Assembly: GCF_003334355.1 (NCBI RefSeq)
Contig: NZ_QOWP01000006.1
Strand: one strand, 5' to 3'
Source of the DNA: Escherichia coli
Lineage (GTDB): Bacteria > Pseudomonadota > Gammaproteobacteria > Enterobacterales > Enterobacteriaceae
DNA: 64,000 bases
The notes under the pieces are model-generated. The model had not been told where the DNA came from. It worked only from the letters and a program-made list of their open reading frames with translations, and did no database searches. Position numbers and translations under genes: made by a program. The stretch's first letter is position 1. Every line of letters begins with the position of its first letter. Below are positions 16,272 through 18,313 of the stretch, in pieces.

Positions 16272-18134
16272 ATGAGTTTTGATATTGCCAAATACCCGAC
16301 CCTGGCACTGGTCGACTCCACCCAGGAGTTACGACTGTTGCCGAAAGAGAGTTTACCGAAACTCTGCGACGAACTGCGCCGCTATTTACTCGACAGCGTG
16401 AGCCGTTCCAGCGGGCACTTCGCCTCCGGGCTGGGCACGGTCGAACTGACCGTGGCGCTGCACTATGTCTACAACACCCCGTTTGACCAATTGATTTGGG
16501 ATGTGGGGCATCAGGCTTATCCGCATAAAATTTTGACCGGACGCCGCGACAAAATCGGCACCATCCGTCAGAAAGGCGGCCTGCACCCGTTCCCGTGGCG
16601 CGGCGAAAGCGAATATGACGTATTAAGCGTCGGGCATTCATCAACCTCCATCAGTGCCGGAATTGGTATTGCGGTTGCTGCCGAGAAAGAAGGCAAAAAT
16701 CGCCGTACCGTCTGTGTAATCGGCGATGGCGCGATTACCGCAGGCATGGCGTTTGAAGCGATGAATCACGCGGGCGATATCCGTCCTGATATGCTGGTGG
16801 TCCTCAACGACAACGAAATGTCGATTTCCGAAAATGTCGGCGCGCTCAACAACCATCTGGCGCAGCTGCTTTCCGGTAAGCTTTACTCTTCACTGCGCGA
16901 AGGCGGGAAAAAAGTTTTCTCTGGCGTGCCACCCATTAAAGAGCTACTCAAACGTACCGAAGAACATATTAAAGGCATGGTAGTCCCTGGCACGTTGTTT
17001 GAAGAGCTGGGCTTTAACTACATCGGCCCGGTTGACGGTCACGATGTGCTGGGGCTTATCACCACGCTGAAGAACATGCGTGACCTGAAAGGCCCGCAGT
17101 TCCTGCATATCATGACCAAAAAAGGTCGTGGTTATGAACCGGCAGAAAAAGACCCAATCACTTTCCACGCCGTGCCTAAATTTGATCCCTCCAGCGGTTG
17201 TTTGCCGAAAAGTAGCGGCGGTTTGCCGAGCTATTCAAAAATCTTTGGCGACTGGTTGTGCGAAACGGCAGCGAAAGACAACAAGCTGATGGCGATTACT
17301 CCGGCGATGCGTGAAGGTTCCGGTATGGTCGAGTTTTCTCGTAAATTCCCGGATCGCTATTTTGATGTAGCGATTGCCGAGCAACACGCAGTGACCTTTG
17401 CTGCGGGACTGGCCATTGGTGGATACAAACCCATTGTCGCGATCTACTCCACCTTCCTGCAACGCGCCTATGATCAGGTGCTGCATGACGTGGCAATTCA
17501 AAAACTCCCGGTCCTGTTCGCCATCGACCGCGCGGGCATTGTTGGTGCTGACGGTCAAACCCATCAGGGTGCTTTTGATCTCTCTTACCTGCGCTGCATA
17601 CCGGAAATGGTCATTATGACCCCGAGCGATGAAAACGAATGTCGCCAGATGCTCTATACCGGCTATCACTATAACGATGGCCCGTCAGCGGTGCGCTACC
17701 CGCGTGGCAACGCGGTAGGCGTGGAGCTGACGCCGCTGGAAAAACTGCCAATTGGCAAAGGCATTGTGAAGCGTCGTGGCGAGAAACTGGCGATCCTTAA
17801 CTTTGGTACGCTGATGCCAGACGCGGCGAAAGTCGCTGAATCGCTGAACGCCACGCTGGTCGATATGCGTTTTGTGAAACCGCTTGATGAAGCGTTAATT
17901 CTGGAAATGGCCGCCAGCCATGAAGCGCTGGTCACCGTAGAAGAAAACGCCATTATGGGCGGCGCAGGTAGCGGAGTGAACGAAGTGCTGATGGCCCATC
18001 GTAAACCAGTACCCGTGCTGAACATTGGTCTGCCGGACTTCTTTATTCCGCAAGGAACTCAGGAAGAAATGCGCGCCGAACTCGGCCTCGATGCCGCCGG
18101 TATGGAAGCCAAAATCAAGGCCTGGCTGGCATAA
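16272..18134 (+). CDS. dxs: 1-deoxy-D-xylulose-5-phosphate synthase
   Basis: 620 aa [23 protein letters not shown]; TPP-dependent transketolase-like. Confidence 0.97.
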
Positions 18135-18194
18135 TCCCTACTCCACTCCTGCTATGCTTAACAAATTATTCATAGACTCTAAATAATTCGAGTT

Positions 18195-18300
18195 GCAGGA
18201 AGGCGGCAAACGAGTGAAGCCCCAGGAGCTTACATAAGTAAGTGACTGGGGTGAACGAATGCAGCCGCAGCACATGCAACTTGAAGTATGACGAGTATGG
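18195..18300. repeat. ERIC (enterobacterial repetitive intergenic consensus / IRU) element
   Basis: Contains GTGAAGCCCCAGGAGCTTACAT and AAGTAAGTGACTGGGGTGAACG, each one mismatch from the classical ERIC1R/ERIC2 primer sites; boundaries approximate. Confidence 0.85.
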
Positions 18301-18313
18301 CAGGAGTGGCAGC

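Follow-up and report, generated by a model that had tools for sequence, protein, structure and literature searches.

An ERIC element in the dxs-yajO spacer of Escherichia coli, a probable passenger in an older hairpin predicted to hide the yajO Shine-Dalgarno sequence

Enterobacterial repetitive intergenic consensus (ERIC) elements, also termed intergenic repeat units (IRU), have been described as imperfect palindromes of approximately 127 bp with a core bearing the ERIC-PCR primer sites. They are transcribed from intergenic positions, are present in several copies per genome at loci that vary among strains, and are bounded by terminal inverted repeats with TA on their flanks (Hulton et al. 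1991; Sharples & Lloyd 1990; Wilson & Sharp 2006, as given in PMC10969869 and PMC3184786). Here we describe the ERIC copy found in the 179-bp spacer between the dxs and yajO genes in a 64,000-nucleotide stretch of E. coli DNA (part of contig NZ_QOWP01000006.1, hereafter the window, to which all positions refer). Nothing essential distinguishes this copy from the ERIC elements described previously, the differences being a G in place of T as the first base of the left terminal repeat and a right target duplicate that reads TG. Its surroundings are apparently undescribed. We propose, with a probability of roughly 0.7, that this ERIC is a passenger in the loop of an older hairpin that hides the Shine-Dalgarno sequence of yajO, and that this hairpin, together with Rho, is the likelier regulator of the gene.

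Several described systems resemble the dxs-yajO ERIC in part. The RNA-acting ERICs of Yersinia (De Gregorio et al. 2005, as relayed in reviews) are likewise co-transcribed between genes on the same strand, form an RNA hairpin and adjoin stop and start codons, but at dxs-yajO the ERIC is enclosed by a host hairpin that is predicted to control the downstream ribosome-binding site already. In E. coli, the ERIC between pgk and fbaA has the same orientation, also lies between co-directional metabolic genes and is 93.5% identical to the dxs-yajO copy. The Correia elements of Neisseria (PMC10969869) are similarly miniature transposable elements that are transcribed within operons, form double-stranded RNA and can give rise to promoters at their junctions; however, they belong to an unrelated sequence family, and RNase III cleavage at the dxs-yajO ERIC hairpin is putative only. 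Finally, Rfam family RF02818 (V_AS5, Vibrio RNA AS5) shares the long-hairpin architecture and core motifs and gives a full-length match at 18172-18295 (model positions 1-129, E = 5e-11), but the score of 52.5 bits falls below the gathering threshold of 96 bits, and V_AS5 is best regarded as a related Vibrio repeat family rather than the same one.

The hairpin that encloses the ERIC is most similar to leaders that sequester a Shine-Dalgarno sequence and undergo premature Rho termination, a class treated in PMC7815308 (Adams et al. 2021). In common with that class, yajO has a Shine-Dalgarno sequence buried in a helix, a 3' end at the helix base and poor downstream expression, and it shows the same effects of bicyclomycin and of the rhoR66S allele. 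The yajO leader differs in that it is also the dxs 3' untranslated region (UTR) and in that no ligand, protein, small RNA or upstream open reading frame (ORF) is known to open its helix. The portions of the literature covered by our searches make no mention of an ERIC nested in a hairpin at this locus, of a family-wide leader hairpin, or of a link between either of these and the published 3' end and double-stranded RNA cluster discussed below.

Identity, boundaries and distribution of the ERIC element

The dxs-yajO spacer holds a genuine ERIC mobile repeat, a member of the classic catalogued family. Its central core (18214..18257, plus strand) contains both ERIC-PCR primer sites, the sequences of which are quoted together as a pair in the literature: the complement of ERIC1R matches at 21 of 22 positions at 18214-18235 and ERIC2 matches at 21 of 22 positions at 18236-18257, with one mismatch in each case. 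No other sites for these primers were found in the 64-kb window and none occurred in 100 shuffled sequences, in agreement with an earlier reading of the window made from its letters alone (hereafter the sequence-only reading), which had identified the spacer repeat as ERIC. The repeat also has the unit length of about 127 bp, the palindromic form and the transcribed intergenic position of the family. With respect to copy number, every one of the 5426 E. coli genomes that were searched has a match spanning 80% or more of the element, and the number of such places in a genome ranges from 2 to 21 (median 10).

The ERIC element proper is 123 bp in length (18175..18297, plus strand), with terminal inverted repeats GACTC...GAGTA. 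It is flanked by an apparent 2-bp target duplication, the left copy of which (TA, 18173..18174) was placed using alignments with empty-site alleles and with other ERIC copies, while the right copy (18298..18299) is TG in the window. When representative alleles are aligned, the difference between the ERIC and empty sites is an indel of exactly 125 bp, corresponding to the 123-bp element plus one 2-bp duplicate; the empty site reads TTCATGG and, on the other side of the junction, CAGGAGTGGCAGCATG. K-12 and E. albertii have TA on both flanks, and the window has TA/TG. Empty sites in E. coli read CATGG, without TA, and that of Citrobacter sp. MGH106 reads CATAG.

The termini of the family were defined as TACTCTAAATAATTCGAG...GACGAGTA, with TA on the flanks, from the ERIC copies between ybhJ and ybhI and between pgk and fbaA, both taken from genomes that have no ERIC at dxs-yajO. 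The dxs-yajO element is 95.1% identical to the ybhJ-ybhI copy, which has TA on both flanks, and 93.5% identical to the pgk-fbaA copy (query positions 3-125). At the first position of the left terminal repeat, the window has G where the consensus has T. A truncated or degenerate left end was considered and rejected, as TACTCTAAATAATTCGAG is the normal terminus in the alignment of the two reference copies. The ybhJ-ybhI copy stops 2 nt from the ybhI coding sequence, and the pgk-fbaA copy is in the same orientation as that at dxs-yajO and also separates two co-directional genes.

These boundaries modify the sequence-only reading, which had located the ERIC at 18195-18313. An element is indeed present there, but the start that was given lies 20 bp too late and the end lies 16 bp past the element, these 16 bp being the duplication, the Shine-Dalgarno sequence and its spacer. 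The ERIC does not occupy almost the whole spacer, as had been stated, but 70% of it, and the remaining 54 bp form an ancestral structure that is conserved. The ERIC does abut the yajO ribosome-binding site, its last base being 4 nt 5' of AGGAG. Likewise, the imperfect palindrome and long hairpin described in that reading were recovered by folding: the ERIC alone is predicted to form a single hairpin (-56.0 kcal/mol), its 22-nt terminal arms are 77% complementary in an inverted-repeat scan, and the whole 179-bp spacer folds at -79.4 kcal/mol (z = -8.0).

Strain-to-strain differences in ERIC-carrying loci are known in general (PMC10969869, citing Wilson & Sharp 2006). When 5426 complete E. coli genomes were queried with a 1.1-kb sequence from this locus, three spacer alleles were identified: a 54-bp empty allele, the 179-bp ERIC allele of the window and K-12, and a 257-bp long form. 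ERIC is present at dxs-yajO in 2844 genomes (52.4%) and the exact empty junction in 2581 (47.6%), including O157:H7, UTI89 and Seattle 1946, such that the two account for 5425 of the 5426. The long form is found in 123 of the 2844 ERIC-bearing genomes, including strain 042. In this form (as seen in E. coli 2014C-3338 and in E. albertii), an 80-nt segment, CAAATCCGCATGGAGCGGATTTG...GGGCCGAATAACTC, takes the place of the AT at 18259-18260; the segment folds into three or four small hairpins and is either an insertion into the ERIC or an ancestral state that was later deleted. The exact left 60-mer of the window haplotype (with C at 18162) occurs in 1001 of 2843 ERIC-bearing genomes and the exact right 60-mer (with G at 18299) in 1089 of 2842. 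Locus-specific spacer-ERIC junctions were also observed on one plasmid record, where a chromosomal segment has apparently been captured or misassigned.

Among 80 species representatives of the Enterobacteriaceae, 75 are ERIC-free at this locus, with spacers of 54-85 bp. E. whittamii is among those with an empty site. The ERIC-free spacers in these 75 representatives indicate that the short spacer is ancestral and that the ERIC is a secondary insertion. In the Trabulsiella odontotermitis strain 01 representative, the spacer length was not measurable with the ORF finder and the hairpin is present; the dxs frame of this strain is apparently broken approximately 250 nt before the usual stop, with the C-terminal coding sequence and hairpin retained, a pattern that may stem from a frameshift or from an error in the assembly. 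The E. albertii type strain carries the long form, with a structure identical to that of the E. coli long form. Two Phytobacter species and 'Kosakonia sp. S29' likewise carry ERIC, in the same orientation and at the same position to within 1 nt, in the hairpin loop; this shared position could reflect an insertion hot spot or a very old insertion. UBA3516 has only a terminal-repeat remnant, TTACTCGAAGTAAGACGAGTAAT, which resembles the outcome of an internal palindrome deletion.

A conserved hairpin around the yajO Shine-Dalgarno sequence

Immediately 3' of the dxs stop codon, the sequence CCACTCCTGC (18143-18152) is complementary to GCAGGAGTGG (18300-18309), which contains the Shine-Dalgarno sequence of yajO (AGGAG, 18302-18306, plus strand, 7 nt 5' of the ATG). 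In the empty allele, these sequences are predicted to form a 16-bp hairpin (-28.1 kcal/mol, z = -5.7) in which AGGAG is fully paired. In the ERIC allele, this basal helix persists in both the minimum-free-energy and the centroid structures and grows from 16 to 19 bp because the final 5 nt of the ERIC (18293-18297) join it, with the ERIC hairpin stacked above. The long-form allele shows the same folding behaviour. The 5' or anti-Shine-Dalgarno arm (18141..18159, plus strand) was delimited using the folds, the alignment, pair counts and RNAalifold, and the 3' arm of the basal helix, which includes the Shine-Dalgarno sequence (18293..18312, plus strand), using the minimum-free-energy and centroid structures. 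Based on the partition function, the predicted probability that the Shine-Dalgarno sequence is unpaired is 0.0 both with and without the ERIC. The predicted cost of opening the ribosome-binding site is 27.1 kcal/mol in the empty allele and 19.5 kcal/mol in the ERIC allele.

The same hairpin arms are found in all 75 of the ERIC-free species-representative spacers. Conservation was assessed using an alignment of 70 distinct ERIC-free spacers from the Enterobacteriaceae, in which both the CTCCTGC of the 5' arm and the Shine-Dalgarno sequence are invariant. In this alignment, 83.8% of cells are paired, compared to 33-51% in controls with a slid partner column. Double changes occur at five pairs (27 cells), among them alignment pairs 23-95 and 25-93 with 10 and 11 double changes, respectively, and the observed covariation score was not attained in any of 500 shuffles. 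The pairs that covary flank the core (CG/UA/UG at one and GC/GU/AU/UA at another), while the 8 central pairs of the helix never vary. When run unguided, RNAalifold returned a 9-bp core pairing the anti-Shine-Dalgarno arm with the Shine-Dalgarno sequence. An Rfam scan of the empty-allele hairpin gave only chance-level matches to microRNA precursors and to the ribosomal protein L31 leader, all with E ≥ 0.06. The hairpin thus combines a stable leader helix with conservation by compensatory change, as predicted for Shine-Dalgarno sequestration.

Conservation in the 5' arm is not limited to paired positions. The sequence CTCCTGCTATGCTTAA (18147-18161, alignment columns 27-41) is nearly invariant in the 70 spacers, yet its TATGC partners pair in only about half of them. 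The motif TATGCUUAA is a candidate for recognition by factors in the 48-nt leader. A different role for part of this region, with TGCTATGCT serving as the extended -10 of a yajO promoter that would give transcripts lacking the anti-Shine-Dalgarno arm, is unsupported: the published 5' UTR begins upstream, at 18142, and includes the arm.

Published K-12 RNA data and the regulation of yajO

The RNA data for this locus were taken from published studies of K-12, an ERIC-bearing strain. Using Term-seq, a dominant 3' end with a score of 38352 was mapped to NC_000913.3 438135(-) (PMC7815308). Following coordinate conversion (yajO occupies 437161..438135 in NC_000913.3, and PMC7815308 reports ends in the format '50 upstream + end + 10 downstream'), this end corresponds to the A of the yajO ATG, position 18314 of the window, 2 nt beyond the final base pair of the basal helix. 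Located in a Rho termination region, it has a Rho score of 2.89 and, against a threshold of 3, an intrinsic-terminator score of 1.03. A separate Rho termination region was reported at 438058, 77 nt into the yajO ORF, and a lacZ fusion to the yajO 5' UTR and ORF increased more than 2-fold in rhoR66S. In the same study, 3' ends were retained only if a mapped start site was present no more than 200 nt upstream, and the forward primer used for the 'entire 5' UTR' fusion starts with TCCACTCCTGCTATGCTTAAG, which is window position 18142. The promoter and start of the yajO 5' UTR can tentatively be placed at 18130..18142 (plus strand), the start at approximately 18142 being taken from this cloning primer and the putative -10, TGgCATAAT, overlapping the dxs stop codon. 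An RNA bounded by the published ends is predicted to fold into one hairpin with a 5-nt 3' tail, which is the product expected from exonuclease trimming after Rho termination.

Both published ends enclose the ERIC, such that the element is transcribed in K-12, as the sequence-only reading had supposed, and no transcript boundary excluding it from the mRNA was seen. An antisense 3' end was also reported at window position 18076 (PMC7815308). In a separate study, the double-stranded RNA cluster S-43, which corresponds to 18094-18280, was the fourth strongest p19-captured RNase III cluster among coding genes (PMC7373196, Huang et al. 2020), and was ascribed to a new antisense RNA, for which an antisense start site was given just downstream of dxs. 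The per-gene table of that study gives values of 8-35 for yajO and 300-800 for dxs. With a 3' end at its ATG and an RNA level far below that of dxs, yajO appears to be insulated from the isoprenoid operon, one of the outcomes that the sequence-only reading had envisaged. A role of the ERIC as the insulating device is not supported, however: the anti-Shine-Dalgarno arm predates it, being present in the 2581 ERIC-free E. coli genomes and in 75 of the 80 species representatives, and the predicted unpaired probability of the Shine-Dalgarno sequence is the same in either case.

In the explanation that we favour, a 123-bp ERIC miniature transposable element would have entered the apical loop of a hairpin that was already there, generating a 2-bp duplication; the hairpin is ancestral to the Enterobacteriaceae, and in it the 5' arm (CCACUCCUGC...) pairs with the Shine-Dalgarno region of yajO (GCAGGAGUGG). 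With its Shine-Dalgarno sequence occluded, yajO would be poorly translated; the untranslated early ORF would be exposed to Rho, and transcription would stop early in the gene. The 3' exonucleases would then trim back to the base of the hairpin, leaving a strong 3' end on the initial base of the ORF, and the same hairpin would serve as the protected 3' end of dxs transcripts. An ERIC that folds on itself in the loop would stack on the old helix and add 3 bp to it without disruption, and should therefore be largely neutral for the control of yajO translation. The polymorphism of approximately 50% is read most simply as tolerance, in the loop of a stable hairpin, of an insert that folds on itself. 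The ERIC at dxs-yajO is probably near-neutral as judged from these models; as plausible side effects, it would extend the leader from 48 to 173 nt, lengthen the double-stranded stem and give rise to a hybrid antisense promoter where it meets its right flank.

Several considerations weigh against this explanation. Neutrality of the ERIC is predicted from folding and from the approximately 50/50 polymorphism, and thermodynamic folds ignore the kinetics of co-transcriptional folding, in which the ERIC parts the two arms by about 150 nt. The ERIC core contains a decoy, CAGGAGC (18223-18229), with the same motif as the context of the yajO Shine-Dalgarno sequence, with which the anti-Shine-Dalgarno arm could pair transiently while the 3' half of the ERIC is still to be transcribed. 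An opening cost that is 7.6 kcal/mol lower with the ERIC may mean that the block is somewhat loosened. The core helix, being invariant, provides no covariation signal of its own, and conservation of the Shine-Dalgarno sequence would be expected in any case. The 5' arm and the start of the loop, TATGCTTAA, are conserved beyond the needs of pairing, and this excess suggests a further function besides the helix. With regard to the published data, the 5' end at 18142 was deduced from a cloning primer rather than from a table of start sites, and all of the RNA data are from an ERIC-bearing strain, so that the behaviour described for the empty allele is a prediction.

Of the alternatives, it is very improbable that the structure is an intrinsic terminator of an xseB-ispA-dxs operon with yajO as a separate unit. 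A strong 3' end directly following a very stable hairpin and a yajO RNA level far below that of dxs would fit such a terminator; however, the stem is followed by CAGCAUGCAAUAC and not by the U-tract that a Rho-independent terminator has after its GC-rich stem, a terminator scan of the spacer found none, and the published score is below threshold for a site that lies in a region of Rho-dependent termination (PMC7815308), and this candidate was rejected. It is also unlikely that the ERIC itself is the regulator, with its hairpin or a site in it for RNase E or RNase III setting dxs mRNA stability or blocking yajO translation and with expression differing by ERIC status. There is precedent in Yersinia, where co-transcribed ERICs alter upstream mRNA levels via an RNase E site in the right terminal repeat (summarised in PMC10969869 and PMC3184786). 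With the ERIC, moreover, the basal helix reaches 19 bp, a further stem of roughly 50 bp is present and the opening cost of the Shine-Dalgarno sequence differs by 7.6 kcal/mol, and the K-12 spacer is home to S-43. Nevertheless, sequestration exists without the ERIC and is conserved throughout the family, 47.6% of E. coli genomes have no ERIC at the site, and, according to the authors of PMC7373196, the p19 method captures perfectly paired sense-antisense duplexes rather than intramolecular hairpins. A third possibility, that the ERIC is an old and selectively retained insertion, orthologous in Escherichia and Phytobacter and repeatedly lost, and not a recent neutral polymorphism, would account for its shared orientation and position (within 1 nt, just 5' of GCAGGAG) in E. 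coli, E. albertii, Phytobacter and 'Kosakonia sp. S29' and for the identical long form in E. albertii and 123 E. coli genomes. We consider it quite unlikely given the many ERIC-free species representatives, E. whittamii included, the lack of a footprint at E. coli empty sites, and the identity of the E. coli copy, which is 95% with another E. coli ERIC and, on inspection of the alignment, only about 75% with the Phytobacter copy.

It is possible, if doubtful, that the ERIC acts mainly as a source of promoters, an effect that would be compatible with a passenger role and could be added to it. A candidate extended -10 for antisense RNA, read from the sequence, is formed where the ERIC meets its right flank (18294..18302, minus strand) and reads TGCCATACT in the window, TGCTATACT in K-12 and TGCCATGAA in empty alleles, which lack the final T of the -10. 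From here, an antisense RNA of approximately 210 nt would cover the ERIC, the anti-Shine-Dalgarno arm and the 3' end of dxs. On the plus strand, a promoter-like site, TTAACA-18-AATAAT (18158..18187), with its -10 in the left terminal repeat of the ERIC, would drive a sense RNA that lacks the anti-Shine-Dalgarno arm and so escapes sequestration; it matches the consensus at 10 of 12 positions, where 1.5 such matches are expected by chance in the region scanned. The equivalent K-12 site matches at 9 of 12 positions, with TTAAGA in place of TTAACA owing to a G where the window has C at 18162. The antisense RNA reported to begin just downstream of the 3' end of dxs in K-12 (PMC7373196) and the antisense 3' end at 18076 (PMC7815308) are in keeping with such a promoter, the S-43 boundary at 18280 is approximately 7 nt from the start predicted for TGCTATACT, and an RNA starting at 18195 is predicted to have a partly open Shine-Dalgarno sequence (opening cost 9.7 kcal/mol). 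Both sites are consensus matches only, though, and the minus-strand site has no -35 and was not flagged by the scan. Furthermore, the coordinate of the antisense start is a prediction, the CATACT of the window is weaker than the TATACT of K-12, and small-RNA reads within the ERIC may map to several of the approximately 10 copies per genome. Two further proposals concern how the helix might be opened. It is improbable, although the near-invariance of CTCCTGCTATGCTTAA is what such a model would draw on, that the 54-bp hairpin is a family-wide regulated leader in which a protein, small RNA or metabolite recognises this sequence, opens the helix, relieves Rho termination and turns yajO on when Dxs output is inadequate, with the three E. 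coli alleles tuning the switch. Translational coupling, with a ribosome at the dxs stop codon melting the helix, is retained as a weak possibility; a terminating ribosome would touch at most the base of the helix because the gap from stop codon to stem is 6 nt in E. coli and approximately 8-17 nt elsewhere.

The yajO gene and the significance of the locus

On the plus strand of the window, the gene order is xseB, ispA, dxs and yajO. The dxs coding sequence occupies 16272..18134, with its TAA stop codon at 18132-18134, and the RefSeq model of yajO (324 aa) occupies 18314..19288, starting with an ATG at 18314. All of the coordinates given in the sequence-only reading for this layout (the dxs stop, the yajO ATG, the upstream AGGAG and the 179-bp spacer) were reproduced. 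A longer ORF of 348 aa opens at a GTG at 18242, and its in-frame 5' extension (18242..18313, plus strand) crosses the ERIC core. We agree with the earlier view that this extension is an artefact, because its start lies within the ERIC core, the ATG, preceded by a proper Shine-Dalgarno sequence, is used both by RefSeq and by 80 of 80 orthologues among the Enterobacteriaceae species representatives, and ERIC-free 54-bp alleles do not have the capacity to encode it. With respect to annotation, the 348-aa ORF can be set aside, and the leader hairpin merits a feature of its own.

YajO is named '1-deoxyxylulose-5-phosphate synthase YajO' in RefSeq (PGAP), and overexpression of yajO has been found to rescue a dxs knockout (PMC8791446). 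An alternative route to 1-deoxyxylulose 5-phosphate, tightly silenced, thus lies directly 3' of dxs. If the hairpin were a regulated leader, the empty, ERIC and long ERIC alleles would constitute ready-made natural variants of the switch.

The hairpin context offers a structural reading of both the K-12 3' end at the start of yajO and the S-43 hot spot, neither of which is explained structurally in the cited papers. ERIC elements are widely used for typing and are rarely given a mechanistic context. A natural polymorphism of approximately 50/50, placed precisely within the loop of a hairpin that is conserved and occludes a ribosome-binding site, provides a clean system in which to ask whether a miniature transposable element in a leader is neutral or whether, as the alternatives at dxs-yajO would have it, the ERIC changes RNA decay or creates an antisense transcript.

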